From an uncultured Eubacteriales bacterium (GTDB lineage Bacteria; Bacillota; Clostridia; Oscillospirales; CAG-272): DNA of 41,733 nt. The position numbers and the translations under genes were made by a program. The stretch covers positions 1 to 41,733 of the forward strand of contig CAKRMZ010000009.1 of NCBI GenBank assembly GCA_934365155.1, written 5' to 3'. The notes beneath the pieces were generated by a model, which was not told the origin of the DNA, ran no database searches, and saw only the letters and a program-made list of their open reading frames with translations. Position 1 is the stretch's first letter. The number at the start of each line of letters is the position of its first letter. Below are positions 13,042 through 39,175 of this stretch, in pieces.

Positions 13042-13689
13042 ATGAAAATAATATTTCTCGGACCTCCCGGCGCCGGAAAAGGTACCCAGTCAGCAATTAT
13101 CAGTAAAAAATACAAGATACCGACAATTTCTACCGGTGATATTATTCGAAATGAAATTCGTGCTCACAGCGAGCTTGGAGTTGCAGCCGAAACCTTTATC
13201 AAAAAAGGGGAGCTTGTTCCGGATGATGTCGTTATCGGCATCATTCGGGAACGGTTGACAAAAGACGATTGCAAAAACGGGTTTATTTTGGATGGATTTC
13301 CCCGAACGGTAACTCAGGCAGAAGCACTGATCCATATGAATGTTCCGATTGATCTTGTTTTGGATCTTCAGATTTGTGATGAGGCGATTATTGAACGGAT
13401 GAGCGGCAGGCTTTACTGTTCCCACTGCGGAGCAACGTATCACCGCTTATATCATCCGCCGCTTCATTCGATGCTTTGTGATCAATGCCACAATGCGCTG
13501 AGCGTTCGTGATGATGACCAACCGCAGGTGGTCAGAGATCGTCTGCGTGTTTATCATAATCAGACAAAACCGTTAGAGAAATTTTATTCGGATATCGGTA
13601 AGTTATTCATTATTCATGCAGATAAGAAGATTGATGAAATTACCGATGAAATTATGTGTGTTCTTGATAAAGTTGAGTTTGGTAAATAA
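13042..13689 (+). CDS. adk: Adenylate kinase with a C4 zinc LID
   Basis: MKIIFLGPPGAGKGTQS... carries a P-loop. The LID reads CSHCG...CDQCH. Confidence 0.95.
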   Translation: MKIIFLGPPGAGKGTQSAIISKKYKIPTISTGDIIRNEIRAHSELGVAAETFIKKGELVPDDVVIGIIRERLTKDDCKNGFILDGFPRTVTQAEALIHMNVPIDLVLDLQICDEAIIERMSGRLYCSHCGATYHRLYHPPLHSMLCDQCHNALSVRDDDQPQVVRDRLRVYHNQTKPLEKFYSDIGKLFIIHADKKIDEITDEIMCVLDKVEFGK

Positions 13690-13691
13690 TT

Positions 13692-14444: not shown

Positions 14445-14564
14445 TTGCATAGTTTTTAACAGAGTTTTATCGGTTTTATTTCATCGGTATGTATGGATAT
14501 GAAAATTTTGAAAAACTCTTCGTTTCAAAACTGGCAAGCTTTTGAATAAAAAGGAGGGATTATT

Positions 14565-14783
14565 CTGCCGAAGGATGACGTGATTGAATTTGAGGGAACC
14601 GTTGTGGAGGTTATGCCCAATGCGACTTTCAAAGTCAAGCTTTCAAACGATCATATTGTAACTGCTCGGATTTCGGGCAAGCTGCGTATGAATTACATTA
14701 AAATTTTACTGGGTGATAAAGTCACGGTTGAGGTTTCAATTTATGATCCGAGCAAGGGCCGCATTACCTGGAGAGCAAAATAA
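14565..14783 (+). CDS. infA: Translation initiation factor IF-1; start codon ambiguous (CTG at 14565 or GTG at 14580)
   Basis: ..[71 protein letters not shown] is an S1-like IF-1. The strong SD aaggaggg at 14551-14558 is 6 nt from the CTG. The ORF track's GTG at 14580 would drop the conserved KDDV N-terminus. Confidence 0.85.
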
Positions 14784-14813
14784 AAATAAACTGATGGAAA
14801 GGATGGGCACAAA

Positions 14814-14927
14814 ATGAAAGTAAAACCTTCCGTTAAAAAAATTTGCGACAAGTGCAAAATTATTAAAAGAAAAGGCCATGTGATGGTGATTTGCGAAAAT
14901 CCGAAGCACAAACAGAAACAAGGTTGA
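14814..14927 (+). CDS. rpmJ: 50S ribosomal protein L36 (37 aa, not in the ORF track because it is under 60 aa)
   Basis: Manual translation gives [37 protein letters not shown] with the C-x2-C...C-x4-H zinc ribbon. The RBS ggaaaggatggg lies upstream. Confidence 0.92.
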
Positions 14928-14960
14928 TTTTTACTTTAAAAAAAGAGGTGAACAAATTAA

Positions 14961-15329
14961 ATGGCTCGTATTGCTGGTGTAGATATTCCGAACGCGAAAC
15001 GTGTTGAAATCGGACTGACCTATATTTACGGTATCGGTCGCAAAAGCTCCAATGATATTTTAGCAAAAACCGGCATCAATCCGGACACGCGCGTGAAAGA
15101 CCTGACGGAAGATGAGGTTGCCAAACTCCGTGACGAAATCGAAAACTCTTACAAAGTTGAGGGTGATTTGCGTCGTGATGTGGCACTCGATATTAAACGT
15201 ATGGTTGAAATCGGTTGTTATCGTGGCATTCGTCACAGAAAAGGTCTGCCGGTTCGTGGGCAGAGAACCAAAACCAATGCAAGAACACGCAAGGGTCCCG
15301 CAAAGACCATTGCAAATAAGAAGAAGTAA
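14961..15329 (+). CDS. rpsM: 30S ribosomal protein S13
   Basis: [26 protein letters not shown]... matches S13. Confidence 0.96.
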
Positions 15330-15346
15330 AGGAGTGACATGAAGAA

Positions 15347-15739
15347 ATGGCAGTAGCAAAAAAGACCGTCAGAAGACGCCGTGAGCGCAAAAATGTTGAG
15401 CGTGGCGCAGCGCATATCCGTGCAAGCTTCAACAACACCATTATCACTATTACTGATACAGCCGGAAATGCAATTTCTTGGGCATCTGCCGGAGAGCTTG
15501 GCTTTAAAGGTTCCAGAAAGTCTACTCCCTTTGCTGCTCAGACTGCTGCAGAAACCGCAGGTAAGCTTGCTGTAGACCAGGGAATGAAAACTGTTGAAGT
15601 TTATGTTAAGGGTCCCGGTTCCGGACGTGAAGCTGCAATTCGTGCTTTGCAGGCTGTGGGACTGGATATCAGCTTGATAAAAGACGTGACCCCGATTCCG
15701 CATAACGGATGCAGACCGCCGAAGAGAAGACGCGTTTAA
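15347..15739 (+). CDS. rpsK: 30S ribosomal protein S11
   Basis: ..[30 protein letters not shown].. matches S11. Confidence 0.96.
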
Positions 15740-15763
15740 TCAGAATTAAGGAGGTGTAATAAA

Positions 15764-16390
15764 ATGTCAAGATATACAGGACCTGCGTGCAGACTTTGCC
15801 GCAGAGAAGGTACAAAGCTCTTTTTAAAGGGCGAACGTTGCTTAACCAACAAATGTGCAGTTGATCGTCGAGCATCTGCTCCCGGCCAGCATGGAAGCGC
15901 AAGAAAAAAAGTAGAAGAATACGGATTGCAGCTTCGTGAGAAGCAGAAAGCAAAAAGATATTACGGTGTTCCCGAAAAGCAGTTTGCTACGTATTTTAAG
16001 AAAGCAGATGCTGTGGAAGGAATGACCGGTGAAAATCTTCTTTCTCTTCTTGAGCGTCGTTTTGACAACGCTGTTTACAAAATGGGTATGGCAAGCAGCC
16101 GCAAAGAGGCTCGTCAGTTTATTGGACACGGTCATTTCCTGCTTAACGGCAAAAAGGCTACCATCCCGTCTATTATTTTAAAAACAGGCGATGTGATTAC
16201 TGTTCGTGAAAAAACTCGTTCTATGCCGAAATTTAAAGAAATGATTGAAACCCTTTCGAGCGTCAACGCTCCGAAGTGGATGGATCTCGATAAAAATAAT
16301 GCTGTTGCTAAAATTGTTGCAGTTCCCGGCAGAGAAGATGTTGATTTCCCGTTCGAAGAACATCTGATTGTCGAGTTGTACTCGAAATAA
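15764..16390 (+). CDS. rpsD: 30S ribosomal protein S4
   Basis: MSRYTGPACRLCRREGTKLFLKGERCLTNKCA... shows the S4 zinc knuckle and S4 domain. Confidence 0.96.
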   Translation: MSRYTGPACRLCRREGTKLFLKGERCLTNKCAVDRRASAPGQHGSARKKVEEYGLQLREKQKAKRYYGVPEKQFATYFKKADAVEGMTGENLLSLLERRFDNAVYKMGMASSRKEARQFIGHGHFLLNGKKATIPSIILKTGDVITVREKTRSMPKFKEMIETLSSVNAPKWMDLDKNNAVAKIVAVPGREDVDFPFEEHLIVELYSK

Positions 16391-16485
16391 TAGATGCCTC
16401 CGCATAGAGTATCACCGGCTGGCAGAGATGTCTGTGCTTTTGATATTCGGAATTATTTACTATAATAAATTAGGAGGAAACAATC

Positions 16486-17436
16486 ATGATAGAAATTGAA
16501 AAGCCCAATATTACCACGATTAATTTAAGTGATGACGGAACATCCGGTACTTTTGTAGTTGAACCTTTGGAGCGCGGATATGGCACTACTCTCGGCAATT
16601 CGCTCAGACGCGTATTGCTCAGTTCTTTGCCCGGTGTAGCGGTTGTCAGCATCAAGATTGATGGCGTGCTTCATGAAATTTCAACGATTCCGGGTGTGAA
16701 AGAGGACGTTTGTGAAATCGTTCTGAATGTAAAAGGTATTATTGCAAAGCTTCATTCGAATGCTCCGAAAACCGTTGCTATTGATATAATAGGACCATGC
16801 AATGTTTGTGCCGGGGATATTAAAGCAGATGCTGATATCGAAGTTTTAAATCCTGCACATCATATTGCTACAGTGGACGAGGATGTTCGTTTCTATATGG
16901 AATTGACTTTCGATCATGGTCGTGGTTATGTTTCGCAGGAAAAGAACAAACAATCACACCCGTCGCAGATTGGTTTGATTTATATCGATTCAATCTACAC
17001 GCCTGTTTATAATGTAAACTTCAATGTGGAAAATACGCGTGTCGGCAATATTACCGATTATGACAAATTAACGCTTGAAGTACTTACAAACGGAACTATT
17101 TCTGCTAAAGAAGCAATTTCTCTTGGAGCCAAGATACTCAACGAACATCTCAACCTCTTTGTTGACCTTTCGGACGATGCAAAGAGAGCAGAGATTATGG
17201 TGGAGAGAGAAGAAACCATCAAAGAAAAAGTCCTTGAGATGACCATTGAGGAGCTTGACATGTCGGTTCGTAGCTTTAACTGTTTAAAGCGTGCCGGCAT
17301 TGATACAGTTGAAGATCTGACGAGTAAAACGGAAGAGGATATGATTAAAGTTCGTAACCTCGGTAAGAAATCACTCGAAGAGGTCATCCAGAAGTTGCAT
17401 TCTCTTGGCCTTGATTTAAAGAAAGACGATGAATAA
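16486..17436 (+). CDS. rpoA: DNA-directed RNA polymerase alpha subunit
   Basis: [50 protein letters not shown]... matches RpoA and includes the alpha-CTD. Confidence 0.96.
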
Positions 17437-17481
17437 TGACTGTCGTTTATGCGAATAACCGACAAAGGAGGGAAATGAATC

Positions 17482-17844
17482 ATGGGAACCAGAAAACTTG
17501 GAAGACCCACTGCTCACCGAAAAGCAATGCTGCGCGGAATGGTAACCTATCTCTTAGAGAACGGTTCGATTGAAACTACACTCACCCGAGCAAAAGAAGT
17601 AAAAAGTATTGCTGAAAAAATGATTACCTTAGGTAAAAAGAATACATTGGCTGCAAAACGCATGGCAATGGAAGTAATTACAAAAGAGAGTGTTGTAAAA
17701 AAGGTGTTTGACGAAATCGCACCGGCCTATGCCGATGTGAATGGTGGTTATACACAGATTTACAAACTCGGCCCCCGTCGCGGTGACGGAGCTGAGATGG
17801 CTTTAATCCGTTTGGTCGATACCAAAGCGGAAGCGTCAAAATAA
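17482..17844 (+). CDS. rplQ: 50S ribosomal protein L17
   Basis: [33 protein letters not shown]... matches L17. Confidence 0.95.
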
Positions 17845-19479: not shown

Positions 19480-20025
19480 ATGATTGTTTTGATTGCCGGT
19501 GCTTCTCATACAGGAAAAACTTTGCTGGCACAAAAATTGCTGGAAAAATATAAATATCCGTATCTATCGATTGATCATCTGAAAATGGGACTGATCCGCA
19601 GTCAAAGCACGGAGCTTACCCCATTGAGCGGTGACACGGAATTAACCGAATATTTATGGCCCATCGTACGCGAGATTGTCAAGACAGCGATTGAAAACAA
19701 ACAAAATCTTATTGTTGAGGGCTGCTATATCCCTTTTGACTGGAAAAAGGATTTTTCGAGAGATTACCTTGAAAATATAAAATATTGTTGCCTTGTCATG
19801 AGTGAGAACTATATAAATCGGCATTTTAACGACATAAAACAATATGCAAGCGTGATTGAAAACCGACTGAATGAAGATTGCACTTTAAAAGATGTGTTGA
19901 AAGACAATGCGCGTACATTGGAGTTTGCACAAAAGAACGGAGTAGACTATTTTCTGATTGATGACGAATACAAGATAGATATTACCCTTGATTCGGAAAG
20001 CAAAGAGAACGGTGGTTGCTTGTAA
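19480..20025 (+). CDS. P-loop NTPase / small kinase-like protein of unknown function
   Basis: MIVLIAGASHTGKTLLAQKLL... carries a Walker A motif, and hhhhDDE-like Walker B candidates follow. The RBS aaggagg is 6 nt upstream of the ATG at 19480. The ORF track extends to a TTG at 19423. Confidence 0.55.
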   Translation: MIVLIAGASHTGKTLLAQKLLEKYKYPYLSIDHLKMGLIRSQSTELTPLSGDTELTEYLWPIVREIVKTAIENKQNLIVEGCYIPFDWKKDFSRDYLENIKYCCLVMSENYINRHFNDIKQYASVIENRLNEDCTLKDVLKDNARTLEFAQKNGVDYFLIDDEYKIDITLDSESKENGGCL

Positions 20026-20130
20026 GTTGTCTAAGAGTTGGGTATGGTCAAGGAAAAGCCTTGCTTAGTTTTAAAAAGCAAAGCGCGCTTGTCGTTTCAG
20101 TGATATTTTTGAGAGGGCGAGAATTAATTC

Positions 20131-20883
20131 TTATTTTTTGTCTAACTCAAAACAGGATGAGAAATTTTTGCAAAGCGGTTGAAATTCAAAGCTTCGATCA
20201 AGCTGTTTGGAGAAAAATTCAATGATCGATCCGTTTAGGATGGCCATGACAAGAGTGCCCCAGCTTAACGCTTCAAGTTTTCCGAAAAAGCAGAAGGTCA
20301 TAGCTGTACTTGCAAGCAAGCAGGAAATATCGAAAATTGTTTTGAAAACAGATAATTTGATACCATAGCGGAGAGAGACCGCTTTTACGAAGAAGTCATA
20401 AACCAGCGGGTATAGATATGTTTTGAAAAAAAGCGCAATCGAAAACGAAGATAGCAAAATACCGATGATAAACATTGAAATCCTGAGCCACAAAGTCATA
20501 GTGCCCGGAGGAGTTACGGATGTATTAAAGCAGGGAATCATCCGCCACAAGTCTAAAACCGCACCGTATATCAAACAAGTCACAAAGGACATCAAATACA
20601 CAGGCTTGAATTTTTTCAAAACGAGGCACAGTATGATAAATATTCCTGCCTGAATGATATATTCTGCTTGCCCGAACGTAATTACGCCCGCTTTCAAACT
20701 GAGCAGATAAGCGGGGGCAACAATCATGGAGATGCCGAAATCGGCCGAGGTCAGGATAGACACCGAGAGAGCCAGCAAGATAATTGCAAGAATATATGCA
20801 ATCTCCGACGGTATGCAGATTTTTTTCTTCGCCGTGTGCTCTGCGTTTGTTTGCTTTTTCTCAATGAATTGCCCCTGTGTCAT
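20131..20883 (-). CDS. Polytopic membrane protein of unknown function (possibly YczE-like)
   Basis: The 250-aa protein has ~6 hydrophobic segments (..ILAIILLALSVSILTSADFGISMIVAPAYLL..) and a ggagg RBS. Confidence 0.5.
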   Translation of the reverse strand: MTQGQFIEKKQTNAEHTAKKKICIPSEIAYILAIILLALSVSILTSADFGISMIVAPAYLLSLKAGVITFGQAEYIIQAGIFIILCLVLKKFKPVYLMSFVTCLIYGAVLDLWRMIPCFNTSVTPPGTMTLWLRISMFIIGILLSSFSIALFFKTYLYPLVYDFFVKAVSLRYGIKLSVFKTIFDISCLLASTAMTFCFFGKLEALSWGTLVMAILNGSIIEFFSKQLDRSFEFQPLCKNFSSCFELDKK

Positions 20884-20896
20884 GCTTGTTCCTCCA

Positions 20897-20931
20897 AAAA
20901 AATACCATACACCGAAACTCGGTGTATGGCG
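20897..20931 (-). terminator. Intrinsic terminator of the XAT/CAT-like operon on the minus strand
   Basis: Hairpin ccatacaccgaaactcggtgtatgg is followed, in the minus sense, by tattttttt, and sits immediately before the next gene's RBS. Confidence 0.6.
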
Positions 20932-21078
20932 AAAAATGAGTGTTTGATCTCAGAAAAATCCATACTGATTTTGTTTCTTTGTTATATCACATAAAACGTT
21001 AATTGTCAACATGGAAATTCAATATATAAATATGTAAACAGTATTTTTTTAGCATAATTTTATGCTTTGCTTTTTTCA

Positions 21079-28580: not shown

Positions 28581-29207
28581 GTCAAGTCCTTTTTTAAAAT
28601 TTCCGAAATAACGGAACACGTGTTTTTTGTATTCCCGATATGCGTCTCCGAAAACTTCGGACAGATATTTCTCTTCCTGCAAAATTTGTAAATGGAGCAT
28701 TACGATCGCAAAAAGCGAGAAAACGGCCAAAAGCAGATTGAAGTACATTAAGAGAACGCCGATGTACATAAAATCAAAGCCAAGAAAAGCGGGATTTCGG
28801 CTGTATTTGTAAATGCCGGTTGTAACAAGCTCGGTTTTGTCTTCGCCGGGAATTCCCGCACGCCAACTGTCCTTCATGCAAATTACCGAAATAAGGAAAA
28901 TCAGGTCTCCGATCATTCCGGTGCAAAAGCCGGTAAAACGTGCGCCGGAGGGAAGGGCGCTCCAACCGAATGCAATCGACAAAAGCTGTACCGCAGGTAC
29001 GCTGAGCGTTGCAATGCTCATGAGAAGCTCCACCGTGTGGATCGAGCGTTCTTTTCTGCATCCGATTTGGCGGGTTTTTATCCCCCGCTGCTTTTGCAGC
29101 AGCATTTTTGTAAAATAAATCCCATAGAACAGTAGTAGTACAATTACGGTCAATACAGGATACGGTAAATGTTCTTCGAATGGATATTTCATGTCTTTTT
29201 CTCCCAT
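28575..29207 (-). CDS. Isoprenylcysteine carboxyl methyltransferase (ICMT)/phospholipid methyltransferase-family membrane protein
   Basis: ..TTGIYKYSRNPAFLGFDFMYIGVLL.. is the ICMT/PEMT signature, and the protein has multiple TM segments. An alternative start at M6 (29192) has a better RBS. Confidence 0.7.
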   Translation of the reverse strand: MGEKDMKYPFEEHLPYPVLTVIVLLLFYGIYFTKMLLQKQRGIKTRQIGCRKERSIHTVELLMSIATLSVPAVQLLSIAFGWSALPSGARFTGFCTGMIGDLIFLISVICMKDSWRAGIPGEDKTELVTTGIYKYSRNPAFLGFDFMYIGVLLMYFNLLLAVFSLFAIVMLHLQILQEEKYLSEVFGDAYREYKKHVFRYFGNFKKGLDK

Positions 29208-29266
29208 GATTGTATTGTTGAATCGAGTTATTATTTATTCCAAGCGTTTTCAGTATCAAAATCGGT

Positions 29267-29737
29267 TCAGCAAGACGTGTGAAACGACTGAAGTGACACC
29301 GTCCAATGTGCTGCGCCGAAGATTACCATACTAACCGCTGCCGGAAGATTATGCAGCCATACGGCGGCACATAAAAAGTAAAGCACGGGAAATACTGCCA
29401 GCGGCATCGGGATACAAAAAAATGCGCGACGGAGCAACGCAATTTTTCGTCCGCCTATAAAAAATCGTATCCAGACGGCATAGTATAAAATCAAACAGCA
29501 GACAGCAAGATATAGCCATGCGCTTTTGAAACTTAGTGGTTTGCAACTCACCAAAAATGTGACTGCAAGCAGATACATCATGCGGCTGATCTGTTCGACA
29601 ATTTCTATCCAACGCGTAATTTTCGTCGGCGGTGAAGATTTTTCGGTAGGCGGAAAAACGGCGTAAACGATATTGATGAGCATGGGCAAGGCAAAAACAA
29701 CGAGCCCTATCCATGAGAAGGATATTTTTAAATTCAT
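29267..29737 (-). CDS. Hypothetical membrane protein (156 aa, ~5 TM)
   Basis: The protein is hydrophobic (MNLKISFSWIGLVVFALPMLINIVYAVF...), and its start overlaps the tetR(3) stop by 4 nt. Confidence 0.5.
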   Translation of the reverse strand: MNLKISFSWIGLVVFALPMLINIVYAVFPPTEKSSPPTKITRWIEIVEQISRMMYLLAVTFLVSCKPLSFKSAWLYLAVCCLILYYAVWIRFFIGGRKIALLRRAFFCIPMPLAVFPVLYFLCAAVWLHNLPAAVSMVIFGAAHWTVSLQSFHTSC

Positions 29738-30339
29738 AGGACAATACCTGCTTTCACGGCAAATTCCGGAAGCTTTGAGGGCTTTCCGTAAATCGAAATC
29801 AGCGCACGGAATTCCCGTCGGAATGTTTCCCGAAGCTCTTCATCCGTCAGATATAAATGATCGGTATTAGCGAGAATGGCAAGCCCGTAGGAAAAGTAAA
29901 TCATATCCTGATGAAGACGTCGTGCGACATCCTCACTGTAGCCGTATTCTTCCTGAATCACCCGGATGACCTCGGTCAGCAGTATATCATTTTGATACGG
30001 ACCGAGCTGCTTTCCATCCAAATACAGCCAACGGAAAAGTTGTTTTTCTTCCGCTGCAAATTTGATAAAGCCCATTCCGTAGCTGCTGTATCGGCTGTCA
30101 TTTCCTTCATGCACATGCAGAGAATTTCGTACGCGCTGTGTGTGCATCTCAATGGCTCGCTTTGTAAGTGCGGATTTTAATTCATCCATATTTTTAAAGG
30201 AAAAATAAATCGGCTGTGTGGAACAGCCCAATTTTTTGGCGACACTGCGAGCATTGATTGACGAAAAGCCGCCGTCACGCAATACTTCTACGGCAGCATC
30301 CACAATCTCATCCTTTGAAACTTTTTTCGCGGCAGGCAT
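29734..30339 (-). CDS. TetR-family transcriptional regulator (3)
   Basis: ..IVDAAVEVLRDGGFSSINARSVAKKLGCSTQPIYFSFKNMDEL.. is a TetR helix-turn-helix. Confidence 0.75.
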   Translation of the reverse strand: MPAAKKVSKDEIVDAAVEVLRDGGFSSINARSVAKKLGCSTQPIYFSFKNMDELKSALTKRAIEMHTQRVRNSLHVHEGNDSRYSSYGMGFIKFAAEEKQLFRWLYLDGKQLGPYQNDILLTEVIRVIQEEYGYSEDVARRLHQDMIYFSYGLAILANTDHLYLTDEELRETFRREFRALISIYGKPSKLPEFAVKAGIVL

Positions 30340-30351
30340 GGCAATTACCTC

Positions 30352-30390
30352 AATAATAACATATAGTTATGTATAACATGATGTTATTAT
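30352..30390. promoter_or_regulatory. Nested inverted repeats upstream of tetR(3) (candidate operator)
   Basis: ataataacat ...18 nt... atgttattat, with an inner palindrome gttat-gt-ataac at 30366-30377. It begins 13 nt upstream of the tetR(3) start. Confidence 0.45.
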
Positions 30391-30679
30391 ATGCTGCATA
30401 GGACAATTTGTCAAGAACTATTCTTGATTACCGCAAAAAAATGTTATTGCCCGGATACTGCTCTACAGCTGACACCCGATACACTTTGAAGCGGAATAAA
30501 ACGGAAGAAATCGTGAATATATTGTATTTCGGGAAGTTGTAAACGGAATAAAATTGTGATATAATCATTACAGTAAAGATATTAAAATCAGAGACAGCTT
30601 GGAAGCGGACAAAACCGAGAGCGGAAGAGGCGACCGATATGCAGAGCATTTTAGTCAAATCGGAAAGACGGGTAATGAT

Positions 30680-30958
30680 ATGCGTAGAATACAACGGAGC
30701 GGCAATTTTTTCTTTTGCTTGCTCATCAATATGTTAATGAACCCTGAGGGATTCATTCTTGCCGCGGTTCTGCTTGTTTTGCATTTTGTGCTCGGTTTGT
30801 CTCTTTGGTGGACCTATGCGGCACTCGGATTGTGGATTTTTTGGCTGATTATTCGGATGTGCCTTATCGGCTGGGCAGTGCGATGCGGCAGTGTTCCCGA
30901 TCCCAAAAAAGAGAATAAGAATCCGTATTCGGTTGGGAAAATACAAAAAAAGCAATAA
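30680..30958 (+). CDS. Small two-TM membrane protein (about 75-93 aa; start uncertain at 30680 or 30731)
   Basis: The hydrophobic core is ..FILAAVLLVLHFVLGLSLWWTYAALGLWIFWLIIRMCLIGW.., and a hairpin follows the stop immediately. Confidence 0.4.
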   Translation: MRRIQRSGNFFFCLLINMLMNPEGFILAAVLLVLHFVLGLSLWWTYAALGLWIFWLIIRMCLIGWAVRCGSVPDPKKENKNPYSVGKIQKKQ

Positions 30959-30960
30959 AT

Positions 30961-30981
30961 CTCCGGAATGATTCCGGAGTA
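30961..30981 (+). terminator. Hairpin after the small membrane-protein gene (weak terminator)
   Basis: ctccggaatgattccggag lies 3 nt after the stop and is followed by an A/T-rich stretch. Confidence 0.4.
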
Positions 30982-31021
30982 ATATAAAACAAAATATTTT
31001 TACTTGGAAGGAGTCTGTATT

Positions 31022-32350
31022 ATGGGATTAATAAAAGCTGGGATCGGTGCGTTGGGCGGCACATTGGCGGATCAATGGAAAGAGTTTTTCTACTGCGAAT
31101 CCATGCCGAAAGAGGTGCTTGTCACCAAAGGGCAAAAACGGATCAGCGGACGATCCTCCAACACCAAGGGGAACGATAATATCATTACAAACGGTTCCGG
31201 CATTGCCGTAGCTGACGGTCAGTGCATGATCATTGTGGAGCAAGGCAAGGTCGTGGAGGTTTGCGCCGAACCCGGCGAGTTTACATATGATGCTTCCACC
31301 GAGCCGTCCATATTTTCCGGCAGCCTCGGAAACAGCATTAAGGAGACGTTTAAGACAATCGGTAAACGCTTTACCTACGGCGGCGATACCGGTAAGGATC
31401 AGCGAGTCTATTACTTCAACACCAAGGAACTCATCGACAACAAATTCGGTACGCCGAATCCCATTCCCTTCCGAGTAGTCGACTCGAAGATCGGATTGGA
31501 TGTGGATGTATCGGTACGGTGCTCGGGTGTATATTCATATAAGATTGCCGACCCGCTGCTGTTTTACACCAATGTGTGCGGCAATGTAGAAAGAGAGTAT
31601 ACCCGGGATGAACTGGACAGTCAACTCAAGACCGAATTTATCAGCGCATTGCAGCCGGCATTCGGAAAGCTTTCCGATTTGGAGATGCGGCCGAACCAGA
31701 TTGTCAGCCACAATACAGAGCTTGAAGAAGCTATGAACACGGCGCTTTCGGCAAAATGGGGCGAGCTGCGCGGTCTTAAGGTAGTGAGCATTGCGCTCGG
31801 CTCAGTCACATTGCCGGACGAAGATGCCGAAATGATCAAGCAGGCACAGCGCACGGCGATCATGCGAGATCCGACGATGGCTGCGGCGACATTGGTTGGT
31901 GCACAGGCAGACGCGATGAAGGCGGCTGCTGCAAACGAAAACGGTGCCATGACCGGCTTTATGGGTATGGGTATGGCGATGAATGCCGGCGGCGGAATGA
32001 ACGCGCAGAATCTGTTTGCTATGGGACAGCAGCAACAGCAACAGGCACAGCAGAGTGCAGCTGCGGTAGCACCGGCGGCAGAGACTTGGAGATGTGCATG
32101 CGGTACGACGGCAAGCGGGAAATTCTGTCCGGAGTGTGGTGCACCGAAGCCTGCCGGCAATGATGGATGGACCTGTTCCTGCGGTGCAGTGAACAAAGGA
32201 AAGTTCTGCCAGAACTGCGGCGCAAAGAAACCGGCAGGGGTACCGCAGTACCGCTGCGACAAGTGCGGTTGGGAGCCGGAGGATCCGAAGAACCCCCCGA
32301 AGTTCTGCCCGGAATGCGGCGATCCCTTTGATGAAAAGGATCAAAAATAA
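31022..32350 (+). CDS. SPFH/Band-7 domain protein (YdjI / virion-core-protein-like) with a poly-Q/Ala/Gly/Met low-complexity linker and three tandem C-terminal zinc ribbons
   Basis: The N-terminus MGLIKAGIGALGGTLADQWKEFF... and the SPFH-like core match. The tail has three C-x-C-G-x(6-15)-F-C-x-x-C-G repeats (CACG..CPECG, CSCG..CQNCG, CDKCG..CPECG). The RBS aaggag is 8 nt upstream. Confidence 0.65.
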   Translation: MGLIKAGIGALGGTLADQWKEFFYCESMPKEVLVTKGQKRISGRSSNTKGNDNIITNGSGIAVADGQCMIIVEQGKVVEVCAEPGEFTYDASTEPSIFSGSLGNSIKETFKTIGKRFTYGGDTGKDQRVYYFNTKELIDNKFGTPNPIPFRVVDSKIGLDVDVSVRCSGVYSYKIADPLLFYTNVCGNVEREYTRDELDSQLKTEFISALQPAFGKLSDLEMRPNQIVSHNTELEEAMNTALSAKWGELRGLKVVSIALGSVTLPDEDAEMIKQAQRTAIMRDPTMAAATLVGAQADAMKAAAANENGAMTGFMGMGMAMNAGGGMNAQNLFAMGQQQQQQAQQSAAAVAPAAETWRCACGTTASGKFCPECGAPKPAGNDGWTCSCGAVNKGKFCQNCGAKKPAGVPQYRCDKCGWEPEDPKNPPKFCPECGDPFDEKDQK

Positions 32351-32356
32351 TATTTG

Positions 32357-32399
32357 TGTTTTGCGAGAAAGGCGGCGAATACGACTTTCTCGCAAAACT
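32357..32399 (+). other. 13-bp-stem hairpin in the spacer between the SPFH and Zn-ribbon genes
   Basis: ttttgcgagaaag-gcggcgaatacga-ctttctcgcaaaa has no U-tract after it. Confidence 0.45.
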
Positions 32400-32474
32400 A
32401 TAAAGATATGATATTTGAAATCCGGTTTGTCAAAGCGGCGAACTGCGATTGATGCGATTGAAAGGAGATTTTTG

Positions 32475-33569
32475 ATGCAAACTTTGCAGGAATATAAATG
32501 CCCCTGCTGCGGCGGTGCTATCAGCTTTGACAGCACGCTTCAAAAAATGAAGTGTCCCTTCTGTGACACGGAATTTGAGGTAGAGACACTCAAGAAATAC
32601 GATGCTGAGCTGCAAGAAGAGCAGACTGATAATATGGAGTGGGAGACCTCGGCAGGCGGTGACTGGCAAGAGGGAGAGACGGACGGTCTCCGTTCTTATA
32701 TCTGCAAATCCTGCGGCGGCGAAATCGTGGGCGATGCAAACACGGCGGCAACCTCTTGCCCTTTCTGCGGAAACCCCGTTGTAATGATGGGTCAGTTCAC
32801 GGGTGCACTGAAACCCGACCTTATAATCCCGTTCAAGCTGGATAAGAAGGCGGCAAAGGCAGGGCTTTTGAAGCATCTGACCGGAAAAAGATTGCTGCCG
32901 AAGATCTTCAAGGATCAGAACCACATTGACGAAATTAAAGGCGTGTATGTACCGTTTTGGCTGTTCGATACCGATGTGGATGCGCAGGTGCGGTATCGTG
33001 CAACCAATATGCGAACATGGAGCGACAGCAACTATAACTACACCGAAACCAGCCATTTTCTGGTGCACCGCGGCGGCAGCGTGGGCTTTGAGCATGTGCC
33101 GGTGGACGGCTCATCCAAGATGGCAGATGATTTAATGGAATCCATTGAACCCTATGATTTCTCCGATGCCGTAGATTTTCAAACGGCATATCTTGCCGGA
33201 TATCTTGCAGACAAATACGATGTAACTGCCGAACAGAGCATTGACCGTGCCAACGAGCGTGTAAAGCGTTCCACGGAGGAGGCTTTTGCCGCTACCGTAC
33301 AGGGATACGGCACGGTTCGCACCGAAAACAGCAGTGTCCGATTCCACGGCGGCAAGGCAAAATATGCACTCTACCCGGTATGGATTTTGAATACCACATG
33401 GAACGGCAACAAATACACCTTCGCCATGAACGGCCAGACAGGAAAATTCGTGGGTGACCTGCCGGTAGATAAAGCAGCGGCGTTTCGGTGGACGCTTGGC
33501 TTAACTGCAGCATTCAGCGTCGCATCCTACGGTGTGATTTTACTTTTGCATCTTATTGGCATATTGTAA
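32475..33569 (+). CDS. Double zinc-ribbon protein with a large middle domain and a C-terminal transmembrane anchor (YdjG-like)
   Basis: MQTLQEYKCPCCGGAISFDSTLQKMKCPFCDTEFEV... and ..YICKSCGGEIVGDANTAATSCPFCGNPVV.. are two Cys4 ribbons. The C-terminus ..WTLGLTAAFSVASYGVILLLHLIGIL is a TM helix. The RBS aaaggag is present. Confidence 0.6.
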   Translation: MQTLQEYKCPCCGGAISFDSTLQKMKCPFCDTEFEVETLKKYDAELQEEQTDNMEWETSAGGDWQEGETDGLRSYICKSCGGEIVGDANTAATSCPFCGNPVVMMGQFTGALKPDLIIPFKLDKKAAKAGLLKHLTGKRLLPKIFKDQNHIDEIKGVYVPFWLFDTDVDAQVRYRATNMRTWSDSNYNYTETSHFLVHRGGSVGFEHVPVDGSSKMADDLMESIEPYDFSDAVDFQTAYLAGYLADKYDVTAEQSIDRANERVKRSTEEAFAATVQGYGTVRTENSSVRFHGGKAKYALYPVWILNTTWNGNKYTFAMNGQTGKFVGDLPVDKAAAFRWTLGLTAAFSVASYGVILLLHLIGIL

Positions 33570-33580
33570 GGAGTGGCACA

Positions 33581-34399
33581 ATGAAAAAGAAATTATCGAC
33601 ACTCTTATTTGTTTTTATCCTTTGTGTCGGAATGATGGTGCCGGCTTTTGCCGAGTCACTCAGTGATATCGAAAATCTTGATGGTTTACGCGTGCTTGAT
33701 ACGGCAAATCTGCTATCCGACAGTGAGGCCGATGAGCTGAATGAAAAAATCATTGAAATCCGCGATCGCCATCAGTTTGATATTGTTATTTATACGACTG
33801 ATGAACCTTTGGAAACAACTCCGCAAGAATATGCGGACGATATTTACGACGCTTGGCAATTCGGCTGCGGGAACGACCGAGACGGGGTTTTACTGCTTAT
33901 CAGTATGGATGACCGTGATTGGTATATTTCCACCTGCGGCTTTGGCATCACGGCCTTTACCGAAGCGGGAATCGAGTATATCGGAGAGCAAATAACACCT
34001 GATTTGTCGGACGGTAACTATGCGGCGGCTTTCAATGCTTTTGCGGATCTGTGTGATGATTTTGTTACACAGGCGAAGTCCGGGAGCCCCTATGATATAA
34101 ATACGCTTCCGCGGGAACCTTTGTCTGCAGTTTATATTCCCGTTTCAATTGCAATCGGCTTTATTCTGGCACTGATAGGGGTGGGCGGAATGAAAGCGAA
34201 GCTTAAAACGGTACGCCGTCAATCCGCGGCCGACAGCTATATGAAAGGCGGTAGCCTGAATATTACCGAAAGCCGGGATCTGTTCTTATACAGCACCATT
34301 ACCCAAACGGCAAGGCCGAAGGAAAGCAGCTCAGGCGGAAGCGGTACACATACATCCTCCTCCGGCACAACGCACGGCGGCGGTGGCGGCAAATTTTAA
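33581..34399 (+). CDS. TPM-domain (YgcG/YdjH-like) secreted/membrane protein with a signal peptide, a TM helix and a Gly/Ser-rich C-terminus
   Basis: MKKKLSTLLFVFILCVGMMVPAFA is a signal peptide. ..LLSDSEADELNEKIIEIRDRHQFDIVIYTT...GVLLLISMDDRDWYISTCG.. is a TPM-domain pattern. ..VSIAIGFILALIGVGG.. is a TM helix. The ATG lies 11 nt after the upstream stop, and an RBS aaggag is present. Confidence 0.65.
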   Translation: MKKKLSTLLFVFILCVGMMVPAFAESLSDIENLDGLRVLDTANLLSDSEADELNEKIIEIRDRHQFDIVIYTTDEPLETTPQEYADDIYDAWQFGCGNDRDGVLLLISMDDRDWYISTCGFGITAFTEAGIEYIGEQITPDLSDGNYAAAFNAFADLCDDFVTQAKSGSPYDINTLPREPLSAVYIPVSIAIGFILALIGVGGMKAKLKTVRRQSAADSYMKGGSLNITESRDLFLYSTITQTARPKESSSGGSGTHTSSSGTTHGGGGGKF

Positions 34400-34531
34400 T
34401 GTCGCACTGAAAAAGCGTAGTCTTATGAAAAAACTTTCATTTTCCGACCGGCGTTTTATTTTGAATCCGGCAATGGATGATGTTTTTCATCAAGCATATC
34501 GGTGACCTTTAAATCAGATATTGATGAAATG

Positions 34532-34573
34532 AGCCCGTGTATCAGACAAGTGTTTGATACACGGGCTTTTTTG
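34532..34573 (+). terminator. Intrinsic terminator closing the SPFH/ZnR/TPM cassette
   Basis: gagcccgtgtatc-agacaagtgtttg-atacacgggc is followed by tttttt. Confidence 0.75.
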
Positions 34574-34683
34574 TTCAAAATTGTATTTTTGATTTTGGTT
34601 TTTGGAATTAAGGTTTTATCGGACTTCTGCACTGACAGCGCATGTCGGTTGTTTTTTGAATACCGTTATTCCGATAATTTAAT

Positions 34684-36273
34684 TTATAATTCTTCAAAAC
34701 GCTTTGTACCTCTGCTCTTTAACCACAATCCCAGCAGGATGTCGAGAACAACGGTTAAAACAGAACAAAGGATTATATATAAATGGTTGTTGGCTTGATA
34801 GTCGAAGACCAGTGCAAAGCCCAATGCGATAATATAGGCCCAATTCAGCAGAAATGCTAAGAATATACCGATCCCCTGTTTAACGGCTGCCGCTTCGGAT
34901 GTCCAGTTTAGATTCGGCCTTTTCAGATTAATGATCAGTCCGGTTTCCGCACTGAAAATACAGACGGCAAGCGGTAAAAGGAAGAGAAAAATCATGTTTG
35001 TGAGCGTGGGCCGGATGACGATCGCCATACATAAACTGCATAAAAGTGCCGGAATTGCGGTTAAAAGTATATGCAAACTCAGCTTTGCCTTAAAAACTTT
35101 CCATGTGGAAACCGGAAGCGATTGGATTAACCACAGGCTTTTTCCCTCCATAGATATTGTCGGCGCGGTAATATTATTCATCGAGGCTAATAAGCAGATA
35201 CTTACGATGGCAATCGGAGGGAGCACTGATTGCGGAAGCTCCAGCATCGTGCACAGATTCCGAATCCATTCGCCTTTGATTAAGACGGCAACGGAGGATA
35301 TAATCAGTAGCAGGGTGCCTAAGGAGCAGTTTAAGATATAAACCGGACTGGAAAGAAAACGGCTCATTTCCCGTCCGAGCAAGGCAGCGCGGATGCTTTT
35401 GGGTTTTTGTTTTCTGGCTTTATAAGGTGTTTTTGCTGTCTTTTCGGGTTCCAATGCAATCTTTAAAAAGCTTCGGGATAAAATTCGATAGACGAGCAAG
35501 AACAGAATCAGCATCGCGGCGGCAAAAATAGCCATGCTGGGAATATCTCCGATTGCGGCTTTACCCATTAGATATAAAGGATATCCGAAGTTTTTGATTT
35601 GTGTAGCAATGCGGTCACTGTTTTCGATAATCAGCGTGATTGATTCACTGGCTTTGAAGTAGATGTAGTAATAGACCGCTAAAAAGATCAGAGAAACAAG
35701 AACGGTAATTAAACTTTTATTTTTCAGTTTGGCGCTGATTTTTGCTACAACCCAACCGAGAATGCATGAAAGAATCAAAACCAAAAACGACAGCAGGAGC
35801 GCAAAAAGAATCGGACAGATGATATTGCTTATTTGTAATGTTGCTGTCTGATAAAAGACAATTACTGCAGGCACGATTACCACACCGCTGTATAAAAGTC
35901 CCATTAAGTATACGCCGGTCAGACGGACAAAAATAATGCACGAAACCGGAATCGGCATAGAGAGAAGCAAATCATTATCCTTTGCATTGTAGAGGCTGGA
36001 GTATGTATTAAACACGCTGCCGAATATGCCGAGTATAAAAGCGACCATTCCCATCAGACAGAAATAAAGCCATGATTTTTCCATAGTAATCAAAGGACTC
36101 AGCATTTTTGCGGCAACGTAAAAAATCCCGCCGATAAAAACAATCATAAGAAGAGCAAACAGGATAATATAAGCAATCGATGCAAATGCAGATCTTACTT
36201 TGCCGGTTTTACTGTTTTGGAAAAAACTGCGATTTAGCTCCAAAAGCTGTTTTTTCAGAAGCGCTTTCAGCAT
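34684..36273 (-). CDS. Large polytopic ABC-exporter permease (529 aa), translationally coupled to the upstream ATPase
   Basis: The protein has ≥10 hydrophobic segments and its start overlaps the ATPase stop by 7 nt. Confidence 0.55.
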   Translation of the reverse strand: MLKALLKKQLLELNRSFFQNSKTGKVRSAFASIAYIILFALLMIVFIGGIFYVAAKMLSPLITMEKSWLYFCLMGMVAFILGIFGSVFNTYSSLYNAKDNDLLLSMPIPVSCIIFVRLTGVYLMGLLYSGVVIVPAVIVFYQTATLQISNIICPILFALLLSFLVLILSCILGWVVAKISAKLKNKSLITVLVSLIFLAVYYYIYFKASESITLIIENSDRIATQIKNFGYPLYLMGKAAIGDIPSMAIFAAAMLILFLLVYRILSRSFLKIALEPEKTAKTPYKARKQKPKSIRAALLGREMSRFLSSPVYILNCSLGTLLLIISSVAVLIKGEWIRNLCTMLELPQSVLPPIAIVSICLLASMNNITAPTISMEGKSLWLIQSLPVSTWKVFKAKLSLHILLTAIPALLCSLCMAIVIRPTLTNMIFLFLLPLAVCIFSAETGLIINLKRPNLNWTSEAAAVKQGIGIFLAFLLNWAYIIALGFALVFDYQANNHLYIILCSVLTVVLDILLGLWLKSRGTKRFEEL

Positions 36274-36980
36274 GATTTTTCCTCCAACCCTAAGAATACT
36301 TCTTCAAGGCTTTCGTCTCCTTTGACTTCCTCCATGGTACCAAAGCGAATCAGTTTTCCGTCTTTGATAATGGCAACCTTATCGCAGAGCTTTTCGGCAA
36401 CCTCCAGTACGTGTGTCGAAAAGAAGATGGCGCCGCCCTGATCGCAATGTTCTCGCATGATTGCCTTGAGAAGATGGGATGCTTTGGGATCCAACCCAAC
36501 AAAGGGCTCATCCATAATAATCAGCTTAGGAGCGTGAATCCATGCGGAAATAACGGCTAATTTCTGTTTCATTCCGTGCGAGTATGAAGAAATAGGCTGT
36601 GCCAAATGAGGAGTCAGCTCCAATAAATCGGCGTATTTTTGAATTCGTTCCTGCCGGTTTTCTGCACTGACTTCAAAAATATCCGCAATAAACTGGAGAT
36701 ATTTTATACCGCTCATATACTCATATAAATCCGGATTATCCGGGATATAGGCAATTTGTTTTTTGCATCCGATGGGATCTGCCTTTAGAGAAATTCCGTT
36801 TATGGTAATTTCACCGTTATCAAAGGGTAAAATTCCCGCTACGGATTTCAGAGTGGTTGTTTTGCCGGCTCCGTTATGACCGATAAATCCGTAAATTTCT
36901 CCGCTTGCAATATGAAGTGATAAATCGTCCACTGCTTTTTTATCACCGTAAGTTTTGGTTAAATGCGAAATGTCTAACAT
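36267..36980 (-). CDS. ABC transporter ATP-binding protein
   Basis: Walker A GHNGAGKTTT, signature YSHGMKQKL, Walker B LIIMDEPFVGLD and an H-loop are present. Confidence 0.9.
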   Translation of the reverse strand: MLDISHLTKTYGDKKAVDDLSLHIASGEIYGFIGHNGAGKTTTLKSVAGILPFDNGEITINGISLKADPIGCKKQIAYIPDNPDLYEYMSGIKYLQFIADIFEVSAENRQERIQKYADLLELTPHLAQPISSYSHGMKQKLAVISAWIHAPKLIIMDEPFVGLDPKASHLLKAIMREHCDQGGAIFFSTHVLEVAEKLCDKVAIIKDGKLIRFGTMEEVKGDESLEEVFLGLEEKSC

Positions 36981-37069
36981 AATAATTGCAACTCCGTTTT
37001 TTGTATTTTAATAAAATGGACCAAGGGTGTTTTGCTGTAAGTTGATGGTATCTGCGGCTAAAAAACTGT

Positions 37070-37966
37070 TTATCTGTTTTTTTTACACAGAGTATTCAGT
37101 AATATATAAATACCGATTAATGCGATGATGGATAAAAGCAGAATGAAAAACATCGTACTTATTTCTACTTTATTACTGAAAAAATAGAGATTGCAGTCGA
37201 TAGAATCTTTGATTTTTTCTACGACCTCTGCCGGAAATCCGACCCGACTCATTTCCGAAAATACACCGCGCAGGGCATGATTGCGGAGGAGACTGGTTCC
37301 GTAAGTGCCCGGGAGAAAAGAGAGCACCTTTTGCAGGCCGTCTCCGAATTGGGAAATCGGCATATACGCACCGCAAATAAAACCGTATCCGGCGCTTACT
37401 ACGGTGCCTACGGCAGAAATTTGCCCTTGAGAACTTAAGAAAAAATTGATAATGCTGGAAAGGGCGGTACCGAATAGGACCAGTAAAAACACATCGAGTA
37501 AAATCAGCAAAACATCACTCAAAGATAAATACCACCCGACGCGGGAAAGGTAAACAAAACAGATTCCGGTTGCAAAAAAGCACACAATCAGTGTGGAAAT
37601 CAAAGTGGAAAAATAATAACTGAGCGCCAAAACGGATTTTTTAACCGGTGATACTAAAATATCACCGCGTGTACCGTGGGCTTTATCCTGTACCATGGTC
37701 ATATTGCAGCAAAAAGCTACGGTGACGCAACTGACTGCCAAAAGGGAGGAAAAAAGCTCGCCGCCGACTGTAGCGTCAATCAGACGGTCTGAAATTTGCA
37801 CAGAGTCCGGCAATGATGCAGTGAAGCTGTCACGGTAGACATTGGCGAGAAATGTTGCATAGAGAACCAATAAAATCAGCGGCGTGATCAGTGATGTAAA
37901 AAACATGGCTTTGTCTTTGAAAAACAGCTTGCTGTTGCGCTTGATTAAATTCCAAAGTCCTATCAT
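37070..37966 (-). CDS. ABC-2 family transporter permease
   Basis: The 298-aa protein has 6 TM segments, and its start overlaps the upstream ATPase stop by 4 nt. Confidence 0.7.
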   Translation of the reverse strand: MIGLWNLIKRNSKLFFKDKAMFFTSLITPLILLVLYATFLANVYRDSFTASLPDSVQISDRLIDATVGGELFSSLLAVSCVTVAFCCNMTMVQDKAHGTRGDILVSPVKKSVLALSYYFSTLISTLIVCFFATGICFVYLSRVGWYLSLSDVLLILLDVFLLVLFGTALSSIINFFLSSQGQISAVGTVVSAGYGFICGAYMPISQFGDGLQKVLSFLPGTYGTSLLRNHALRGVFSEMSRVGFPAEVVEKIKDSIDCNLYFFSNKVEISTMFFILLLSIIALIGIYILLNTLCKKNR

Positions 37967-38877
37967 CCTTCGATCCCCCTTGTCAGATTTTTGCCTGTGA
38001 CGGAAAGAAACACATCGTCCATTTTTCCCTTTGTAATTTCATAGTCCGTAAACAGTTCCGGATGCTTCAGAATCAGCTCAGTCGCTGCGGCGGTATTCGG
38101 AACCGATACGCGGATGGCATCACGGATTGTTTCGTAGGGGAAAGCAAGCATATCTGCCTGAGCTGCCGTCAAGCCGTATAAGGTAATGAAATCACCGGTA
38201 TATTTGTTCTTTAGCGCAAGCGGAGTGCCTTCGGCTGCAATTTTTCCGCTGTCAAGGATTACGACATAGTCGGCATCTGACGCCTCTTCCATATAGTGTG
38301 TGGTAAGAAAAACCGTCAAGTGCTCATTTTTTCTGAGATCGGTAATGACGTTCCAAAGCAGCTTGCGGGTCTGAGGATCAAGGCCGGTGGTCGGTTCATC
38401 CAAAATGAGAATTTCCGGCTTGTGAAGCAATGCGCGCGCGATATCGATTCGGCGTCGCTGTCCGCCGGAAAGTTTTGCCACCGGTCGGTTTAAAAATGTT
38501 TTAAAATCGAGCATCTCAGAAAGTTCCGCCAAGCGCTCTTTAAATGCTTTACCGTTGATTCCGTAAAGGGCTGCGCGGCTTTGAAGATTATCTTTGACCG
38601 ACAGTGCCTGATCCAACACGGAATTTTGAAATACAACCCCCAATTTGCGGGCAATCCAATTCATGCCGCTGTCGATGTTTTGCCCACAGATATGAATGCT
38701 GCCGCTGTCCTTGGATAATTGTCCGCACAGAATTGAGATCGTTGTTGATTTGCCGGCACCGTTTACACCGAGAAAAGCAAACAATTCTCCCGGACGTACA
38801 TGCAGGGATAAATCCTGCACCGCGTGGATTGTACCAAATGATTTGTTTAAGTGTTCAATTTCAATGATGTGTTTCAT
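37963..38877 (-). CDS. ABC transporter ATP-binding protein (DrrA-like, with a C-terminal accessory domain)
   Basis: MKHIIEIEHLNKSFG..., Walker A GVNGAGKST, signature LSGGQRRR and Walker B ILILDEPTTGLD are present. The ATG at 38877 follows a ggag RBS. The ORF track starts at 38922. Confidence 0.9.
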   Translation of the reverse strand: MKHIIEIEHLNKSFGTIHAVQDLSLHVRPGELFAFLGVNGAGKSTTISILCGQLSKDSGSIHICGQNIDSGMNWIARKLGVVFQNSVLDQALSVKDNLQSRAALYGINGKAFKERLAELSEMLDFKTFLNRPVAKLSGGQRRRIDIARALLHKPEILILDEPTTGLDPQTRKLLWNVITDLRKNEHLTVFLTTHYMEEASDADYVVILDSGKIAAEGTPLALKNKYTGDFITLYGLTAAQADMLAFPYETIRDAIRVSVPNTAAATELILKHPELFTDYEITKGKMDDVFLSVTGKNLTRGIEG

Positions 38878-38977
38878 GAGGTAAACTCCATAAAAAATAT
38901 TTGATCGGTAATTTGCACTCAAAACCGGGTTTGCTTGTTTTGAGTGTTAACGGAAGTATTTGCGCGAATAAAGGCAA

Positions 38978-39175
38978 TCAATATTCAACATCCGATTTAT
39001 TCGGCATGATAATCGCAGCAACGATATAAGCGATGAGTCCGCATCCGAAGCATAGCGAAAACAAGACCCAAGCTAAACGGACAATGGTAGGGTCAATGTT
39101 AAAATATTCGGCAATTCCGCCGCAAACGCCGGCCAGCTTTTTGCCTTCTTCTATTTTATAAAGTTTCTTTTGCAT
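38978..39175 (-). CDS. PspC-domain small membrane protein (65 aa)
   Basis: MQKKLYKIEEGKKLAGVCGGIAEYFNIDPTIVRLAWVLFSLCFGCGLIAYIVAAIIMP has the PspC N-terminal motif (LAGVCGGIAEYFNIDPTIVRL) plus a TM helix. An RBS is present. The ORF track extends upstream to 39364. Confidence 0.7.
   Translation of the reverse strand: MQKKLYKIEEGKKLAGVCGGIAEYFNIDPTIVRLAWVLFSLCFGCGLIAYIVAAIIMPNKSDVEY

Follow-up and report, generated by a model that had tools for sequence, protein, structure and literature searches.

Is a compact cassette of three same-strand genes, encoding an SPFH protein with a zinc-ribbon tail, a zinc-ribbon membrane protein and a TPM-domain protein, a new kind of system, or is it a relative of the pspA-ydjGHI module of Bacillus subtilis that occurs without pspA? 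This question is raised by a stretch of 41,733 nucleotides (nt) from an uncultured Eubacteriales bacterium (contig CAKRMZ010000009.1), which is referred to here as the window. The three genes, designated A, B and C, are preceded by a small membrane-protein gene, S (Table 1). In B. subtilis, the soluble protein YdjI depends on YdjG and YdjH for its localisation to the membrane; YdjH interacts with YdjG, YdjI and PspA, while YdjI binds PspA and is required for the formation of PspA foci (PMC8581546). The ydjGHI genes have been renamed samGHI, with SamG-SamH proposed as a membrane stress sensor that is restrained by the SPFH protein SamI, and PspA was dispensable for the SamGHI phenotype (bioRxiv 10.64898/2026.02.06.704340). 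The locus in the window is a pspA-less variant of this known SamGHI module and not a new kind of system, since A, B and C agreed with the module in three protein-level features, whereas linkage to pspA and the gene order G-H-I were not found.

The B. subtilis reference proteins were obtained from the N-terminal peptide of YdjG as given by the primers in PMC8581546, which was converted into a degenerate pattern and used to scan metagenome contigs. Contigs recovered in this way carried pspA-ydjG-ydjH-ydjI, their protein ends fitted the published primers, and the recovered YdjG was 99% identical to NCBI entries of B. subtilis. In BLASTP comparisons, B aligned with YdjG over its full length (33% identity, E = 2e-75), C with YdjH over its full length including the tail (26% identity, E = 2e-15), and A with YdjI across the SPFH domain, the Met/Gly/Gln-rich linker and the zinc ribbon (21% identity, E = 3e-10). 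The architectures were also shared: an SPFH Band_7_1 domain, a low-complexity linker and a C-terminal zinc ribbon in A and YdjI; two zinc ribbons, a PepSY/YpeB-like core and a C-terminal transmembrane helix in both G-type proteins; and a TPM domain, a transmembrane helix and a Gly/Ser-rich tail ending in Phe in C and YdjH, with the G and H genes tightly coupled in both loci. These matches, together with the shared architecture, indicated that A, B and C are homologous to YdjI, YdjG and YdjH. The two loci differed in the absence of pspA from the window, in gene order (I-G-H versus G-H-I) and in the modest identity of their proteins (21-33%). Moreover, A has three zinc ribbons and an N-terminal insertion, unlike YdjI with its one ribbon, and a 124-nt spacer, which in relatives is the site of extra genes, separates A from B. 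Sigma-W controls the Bacillus genes; for the cassette, the one promoter candidate found was sigma-70-like.

In searches against Pfam, A matched Band_7_1 (E = 4.8e-19, 69 bits against a cut-off of 24) and C matched TPM_phosphatase above the gathering score (E = 2.8e-32), while B gave only sub-threshold zinc-ribbon matches. No NCBIfam model matched a cassette protein above its cut-off. No hydrophobic or transmembrane segment was present in A. The number of its ribbons varied among 57 clostridial orthologues (loci L008-L087), with three ribbons in 33 loci, four in 22, and two and five in one locus each. C begins with a signal peptide (amino acids 1-24) that, as read from the sequence, looks cleavable at AFA/ES; a sequence search of the PDB matched its TPM domain to 2kw7 and 7tbr. 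Because the basic stretch KAKLKTVRRQ follows the second hydrophobic helix, the TPM domain is placed outside and the tail inside the cell. An alignment of 71 orthologues, which included four pspA-linked YdjH proteins (from the B. subtilis group, Sporanaerobacter, an 'Epulopiscium' metagenome-assembled genome and Ammoniphilus) as well as the protein of Enterococcus gallinarum, showed that the juxtamembrane motif, the Gly/Ser-rich end and the terminal Phe of this tail (34196-34396) are kept. The tail motif and the terminal Phe are thus common to pspA-linked and pspA-less loci.

For B, an alignment with 34 homologues (35 sequences, homologues 36-53% identical) showed that all eight ribbon cysteines (C9, C12, C27, C30, C77, C80, C95 and C98) are invariant, and so is the motif NGQTG close to the C-terminal helix. 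B was modelled with confidence by AlphaFold2 (mean predicted local distance difference test score, pLDDT, 88.6); the model comprises two small ribbons, a single C-terminal helix spanning residues 333-361, and a core in which helices accompany two very long beta-hairpins, each strand of the hairpins being about 25-30 residues long. Comparison of this model with the PDB by Foldseek returned nothing significant (best E = 0.07), and weak matches to beta-pore-forming toxins are probably due only to the long hairpins. Sequence searches of the PDB likewise found no relative of A or B and no Band_7_1 member. The lack of a signal peptide and the Lys/Arg residues that precede the sole helix place the bulk of B in the cytoplasm. 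The family is large: 7,078 cluster representatives at 50% identity matched B at E ≤ 1e-3, and single clusters at 90% identity held more than 1,000 member sequences. In all three proteins the architecture agreed with the preliminary description of this DNA, made from the sequence alone, which had named a YdjI-like SPFH protein with a low-complexity linker and three tandem ribbons, a YdjG-like protein with two N-terminal Cys4 ribbons and a C-terminal anchor, and a YdjH-like TPM-family protein with a signal peptide, and had proposed the profile searches reported above.

S, A, B and C are four open reading frames on one strand with good ribosome-binding sites, that of A being a GGAG at 31010. The stop codon of B and the start codon of C are separated by exactly 11 nt, within which another GGAG lies. 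These measurements bore out the coupling distance and the layout described earlier, in which S with a hairpin and a strong terminator bracket three same-strand genes; both the coordinates and the hairpins were reproduced. An additional hairpin with a strong stem, absent from the earlier feature list, was found in the spacer between A and B; it is possibly an mRNA processing or stability element, and one might speculate that it could set unequal levels of A and of B and C.

Conservation of the cassette was surveyed with one genome per GTDB species, using a pattern derived from 11 sequences. The best 80 of at least 599 confirmed loci were analysed; all were from Clostridia and 61-87% identical, so that relatives of the window are over-represented in the survey. 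In 78 of these 80 species loci, the gene immediately 3' of B, on the same strand, was C (median gap 13 nt). Where at least 1.6 kb of upstream sequence was available (65 loci), an orthologue of A preceded B on the same strand in 57; in 46 of these A was directly adjacent to B, and in 11 between one and six same-strand genes stood between them. When the neighbouring genes were clustered, no other family occurred in more than 16 loci. These results identified A-B-C as the conserved unit, since only these three genes recur, and the near-constant B-C pair put their adjacency far beyond chance. The gene-neighbourhood comparison across Clostridia suggested in the preliminary description therefore found the triad syntenic well beyond this genome. 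In contrast, no more than about 6 of the 80 loci had a homologue of S 5' of A, which makes S an accessory outside the core; S had no match in Pfam, NCBIfam or PADLOC.

PspA was sought by phmmer with the B. subtilis and Escherichia coli proteins as queries, with filters off and a threshold of E ≤ 1, among all stop-to-stop open reading frames. No PspA-like frame was present in the window or in the 80 loci with their 8-kb flanks, and matches were confined to Bacillus-type loci. The sensitivity of this search was adequate, because the E. coli query retrieved Bacillus PspA at E = 7e-16. PF04012 was also absent from the Pfam-annotated contigs identical to the window (about 35 kb). The order I-G-H without pspA, as first described, thus stood for the window, and pspA was found near none of the 80 related loci.

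The closest relatives of YdjG (67-99% identity) came from Bacillaceae, Ammoniphilus, Sporanaerobacter and a metagenome-assembled genome labelled Epulopiscium, and all three sampled loci of this clade had the order pspA-G-H-I. The G-H-I order was seen only in this pspA-linked clade, in which YdjG is at least 67% identical. By contrast, E. gallinarum and an E. faecalis-associated contig carried SPFH-G-TPM without pspA, a Listeria-associated contig carried SPFH-G up to the contig end, and Comamonas, Vibrio, Paracoccus and Tsukamurella carried SPFH-G pairs with neither a TPM gene nor pspA. In these last four genera the C-terminus of the SPFH protein is formed by a GYF_2 or HTH_17 domain and not by zinc ribbons. 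Within the sampled loci, a biased set that is small outside Clostridia, the arrangement found generally is I-G(-H) without pspA, and that of pspA-G-H-I is specific to one clade. The window locus is typical of the former; it is a separate, widespread subtype and therefore not a local rearrangement. Of the earlier statement that the order had been rearranged, the I-G-H order holds and the rearrangement does not, as pspA-less I-G(-H) recurs in all sampled Clostridia, Enterococcus, Proteobacteria and Actinobacteria.

The cassette is probably a PspA-independent SamIGH (YdjIGH) membrane-stress module that acts as a membrane-anchored SPFH sensor-scaffold. This assignment draws directly on domain content, topology signals, homology to YdjI, YdjG and YdjH, tight synteny and the absence of pspA in cis. 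Features relevant to the SamGHI mechanism are retained: A is anchorless, B and C are tightly coupled and the C tail is conserved in both subtypes. In the proposed mechanism, C would sit in the membrane with its TPM domain outside and its conserved Gly/Ser-rich tail, ending in Phe, in the cytoplasm, and B would be tail-anchored by its C-terminal helix, with two zinc ribbons and the PepSY-like core on the cytoplasmic side. B and C would form a joint membrane-integral sensor and anchor. B and C would recruit A, which has no membrane segment, to the cytoplasmic face of the membrane. There the SPFH domain of A would oligomerise into a scaffold that orders the surrounding membrane and holds back signalling by B and C. 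Experiments in B. subtilis supplied the need of I for G and H at the membrane, the contacts of H with G, I and PspA, the role of I as a brake on G/H signalling and the dispensability of PspA for this phenotype; we infer that the same interactions would hold in this organism. The output could be PspA encoded elsewhere or another client.

Several points weigh against this interpretation. The dependence of I on G and H for recruitment and the G-H-I contacts are known only for B. subtilis, and the low identity to the studied proteins has been given above. The known effector, PspA, is not encoded in cis, and the gene order differs. Among Band_7_1 proteins A is divergent (69 bits, versus 147-323 bits for the others compared), and its model had a pLDDT of only 38.5, based on a shallow alignment of sequences 86-94% identical; no structural claims are therefore made on A, and the oligomeric scaffold is assumed from the family. 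Finally, the 124-nt spacer between A and B, with its strong hairpin, leaves co-transcription of A with B and C unproven.

The best surviving alternative, although an unlikely one, is that the triad works through a PspA (IM30) encoded elsewhere in the genome, with A as an adaptor that brings PspA to damaged membrane. The requirement of B. subtilis YdjI for PspA foci and its binding of PspA (PMC8581546) would fit such a role, as would the conservation across both subtypes of the C tail, which in YdjH contacts both partners, and Ravi et al. have suggested that contexts without PspA of their own may draw on one in trans. This alternative is opposed by the lack of pspA throughout the window and within 8 kb in 80 related species, by SPFH-G pairs in other phyla that are also without pspA, and by the dispensability of PspA for the SamGHI phenotype (bioRxiv 10.64898/2026.02.06.704340).

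Less probable still is a quality-control or assembly device, in which the TPM protein would be an extracytoplasmic phosphatase or an assembly chaperone similar to Psb32/TLP18.3 and an SPFH cage would regulate a membrane protease or complex in the manner of HflK/C-FtsH. C is weakly similar to Psb32 (NCBIfam E = 1.4e-4, far below the cut-off), phosphatase activity as well as a part in repair or assembly has been ascribed to TPM proteins (Ravi et al.), and partner-regulating SPFH cages are established for HflK/C and QmcA (bioRxiv 10.64898/2026.02.06.704340). However, no gene for a protease, NfeD or a candidate substrate complex is conserved beside the triad, where only A, B and C recur, and B, its best-conserved member, is without counterpart in HflK/C- or Psb32-type systems.

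An anti-phage or abortive-infection system, which would be consistent with the diverse small genes in the variable slot between A and B, with a serine-recombinase element found there in two loci, with a TIR-domain gene near the Vibrio locus and with the phage-responsive sigma-W of B. subtilis (bioRxiv 10.64898/2026.02.06.704340), is very improbable and was rejected. None of the four proteins S, A, B and C matched PADLOC-DB at E ≤ 0.01, and PHROGs gave matches at the level of zinc ribbons only, none of them meaningful. The cassette lies about 13 kb from a ribosomal protein operon: the window holds the spc/alpha operon (about 4000-17500; L18, S5, L30, L15, SecY, Adk, Map, IF-1, L36, S13, S11, S4, RpoA and L17), and the site is therefore chromosomal. 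The module is nearly universal, with a cross-species conservation of 61-87%, unlike patchy defence islands. It is also rare on plasmids: a homologue of B was found in 12 of 72,556 plasmid records, most of them very large (about 0.24-2.2 Mb), which were typed as non-mobilizable (8), conjugative (3) or mobilizable (1), and dnaX, recR and genes for ribosomal proteins are present at the Enterococcus 'plasmid' locus. Matches in phage collections were short virome contigs or UNVERIFIED_ORG records. Two of the latter, an unannotated 'Listeria phage' and an 'Enterococcus phage' (L099 and L100; OR846934.1 and OR846590.1), carry SPFH-YdjG(-TPM) and may be bacterial rather than phage DNA. No defence or mobile-element signal was thus found for the cassette in these searches, and of the portability ascribed to it in the preliminary description, independence from pspA stood and mobility did not. 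Chance adjacency of A, B and C, for which nothing speaks but the 124-nt gap between A and B with its hairpin, is practically out of the question. It was refuted by their synteny (B-C in 78 of 80 loci, A in 57 of 65), and in Bacillus the three families are likewise linked, although differently ordered.

The slot between A and B was occupied in several relatives by genes for DUF4428 proteins that end in a C-terminal tandem zinc-ribbon array like that of A; the window has no DUF4428 gene at this position. These proteins share the last ribbon of A (CxxCGWxP...PKFCPECG) and matched the A tail in phmmer at 4e-6 to 3e-18, with that of L070 the weakest. Other recurrent slot genes (in L008, L011, L016, L024, L034 and L054, and at L003:6916-8712) encode a 250-amino-acid protein with a DUF4428-like N-terminus, single-transmembrane proteins of 156-190 amino acids, lipoproteins of about 166 amino acids, a TM2-domain protein, and a 430-amino-acid protein with a zinc ribbon and transmembrane segments. 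In two Dorea-like contigs (L001:7412-9960 and L002:7412-9960), a serine-recombinase element with relaxase or Mob genes stands directly 5' of B, truncates a 429-amino-acid zinc-ribbon gene to 229 amino acids and displaces A from the neighbourhood. On the 3' side of C, a DUF6935 gene was often present (14 loci).

Because the slot proteins, mostly DUF4428, end in the ribbon array of A, because the number of ribbons in A varies from 1 to 5 and because GYF or HTH domains replace this tag in other phyla, it is conceivable, if doubtful, that the B-C anchor is a general docking hub and the tandem zinc-ribbon array a portable address tag. If this were true, the module would recruit interchangeable cytosolic clients to stressed membrane without PspA.

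The surroundings of the cassette were not conserved with it. A PspC-domain gene and two ABC systems, which the preliminary description had read as consistent with a stress or defence theme, lie downstream on the opposite strand; apart from two loci of the same species, L005 and L006, no homologue of the PspC gene was found, and the 80 species loci had none. An envelope-stress island that includes PspC and ABC exporters was therefore rejected. On the minus strand of the window, at about 20000-30400, genes for three TetR-family regulators are interspersed with those for small unannotated membrane proteins, for DUF6487 and DUF998 proteins, for an acetyltransferase and for a Clp protease subunit. 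The last of the TetR genes, at 29734-30339, points away from the cassette, and its promoter at 30414-30386 is a perfect TTGACA-17-TATAAT. A search of Rfam around the cassette gave only sub-threshold chance matches. Among these, a weak match to the Listeria small RNA rli40 at 34602-34692 (25.7 bits, E = 0.0018; gathering score 100) falls between the terminator and the ABC permease gene convergent with the cassette and is most likely due to chance.

Table 1. Features of the cassette, its surroundings in the window and selected genes at related loci (positions prefixed with L refer to the locus named).
Feature	Position	Strand	Description
Sigma-70-like promoter candidate, 5' of S and cassette	30537-30565	+	TTGTAA-17-TATAAT with TG extension; consensus scan 10/12 (predicted)
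Gene S, small membrane protein	30680-30958	+	ATG 30680 to stop 30958; 92 amino acids; two hydrophobic (transmembrane) segments; from open reading frame and sequence
Hairpin between S and A	30961-30979		GC-rich, 8 bp; -11.6 kcal/mol; no clear T-run on + strand
Gene A, YdjI/SamI-like cytosolic SPFH protein	31022-32350	+	ATG 31022; 442 amino acids
SPFH (Band_7_1) domain of A	31175-31849	+	amino acids 52-276; Pfam
Low-complexity linker of A	31958-32050	+	amino acids 313-343; Met/Gly/Asn/Gln-rich; MGMGMAMNAGGGMNAQNLFAMGQQQQQQAQQ
Three tandem zinc ribbons of A	32093-32317	+	amino acids 358-372, 385-399 and 412-432; motif count
Hairpin in A-B spacer	32360-32396	+	12-bp stem; fold -24.8 kcal/mol; no T-run
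Gene B, YdjG/SamG-like tail-anchored protein	32475-33569	+	ATG 32475; 364 amino acids
Two Cys4 zinc ribbons of B and acidic linker between them	32499-32768	+	amino acids 9-30 and 77-98
Conserved cytoplasmic core of B	32814-33464	+	amino acids 114-330; two long beta-hairpins; weakly PepSY-like
C-terminal transmembrane helix of B	33471-33557	+	amino acids 333-361; model helix; hydrophobic; Lys/Arg N-terminal to helix
Gene C, YdjH/SamH-like TPM membrane protein	33581-34399	+	ATG 33581; 272 amino acids
TPM domain of C, extracytoplasmic	33692-34060	+	amino acids 38-160; Pfam; topology read from sequence
Transmembrane helix and conserved cytoplasmic tail of C	34133-34396	+	helix at about amino acids 185-205; end GGGGGKF; terminal Phe invariant
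Intrinsic terminator ending cassette	34531-34574	+	17-bp stem, 4-nt loop, T-run; -33.7 kcal/mol; also delimited as 34531-34568
Two ABC systems	34684-38922	-	
PspC-domain gene	38978-39175	-	
DUF4428 slot genes	L008:5680-6564, L014:561-1433, L024:2533-3630, L025:5765-6580, L037:609-1757, L060:6677-7957, L070:6300-7106		
Non-ribbon SPFH partners	L093:3600-4697, L094:3909-4997, L095:3667-4812		GYF_2 (Vibrio, Tsukamurella), HTH_17 (Comamonas); no TPM gene after

The SPFH-YdjG pairs of Vibrio, Comamonas, Paracoccus and Tsukamurella resemble the cassette in having an SPFH gene followed by a YdjG-like gene on the same strand and no pspA; these proteobacterial and actinobacterial pairs differ from it in their lack of a TPM gene, in their GYF_2 or HTH_17 tails and in the low identity of B (23-25%). 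With HflK/C-FtsH, QmcA-YbbJ/NfeD and the flotillins FloA/FloT, the cassette shares the SPFH domain and, as expected from it, an oligomeric membrane scaffold that would regulate a membrane partner. Unlike those proteins, however, A is without a membrane anchor of its own and falls into a distinct family, Band_7_1. Nor did its conserved neighbours include NfeD or a protease family, the partners of SPFH proteins in SPFH-NfeD or HflKC-type systems. The logic of the proposed mechanism is analogous to that of E. coli PspABC, in which a membrane sensor pair is checked by a peripheral regulator, a parallel that has been drawn for SamGHI (bioRxiv 10.64898/2026.02.06.704340). B and C are nevertheless not homologous to PspB and PspC, PspA is absent here, and the position of a PspC-domain gene near the cassette is not conserved.

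Literature searches on SPFH combined with TPM or zinc ribbons returned nothing beyond papers on Bacillus and surveys of the phage shock protein response, and in the literature searched SamGHI/YdjGHI was studied in B. subtilis only and viewed only through its link to PspA. What the present analysis adds is that an SPFH-YdjG(-TPM) unit exists without pspA across dominant Clostridia of the human gut and in other phyla. These pspA-less loci agree with recent genetic evidence that SamGHI signalling does not require PspA, and they point to the SPFH-anchor pair as the conserved core. Their natural variants, which differ in ribbon number, carry swapped tails or contain inserted client-like genes, could serve to dissect the recruitment of the scaffold.

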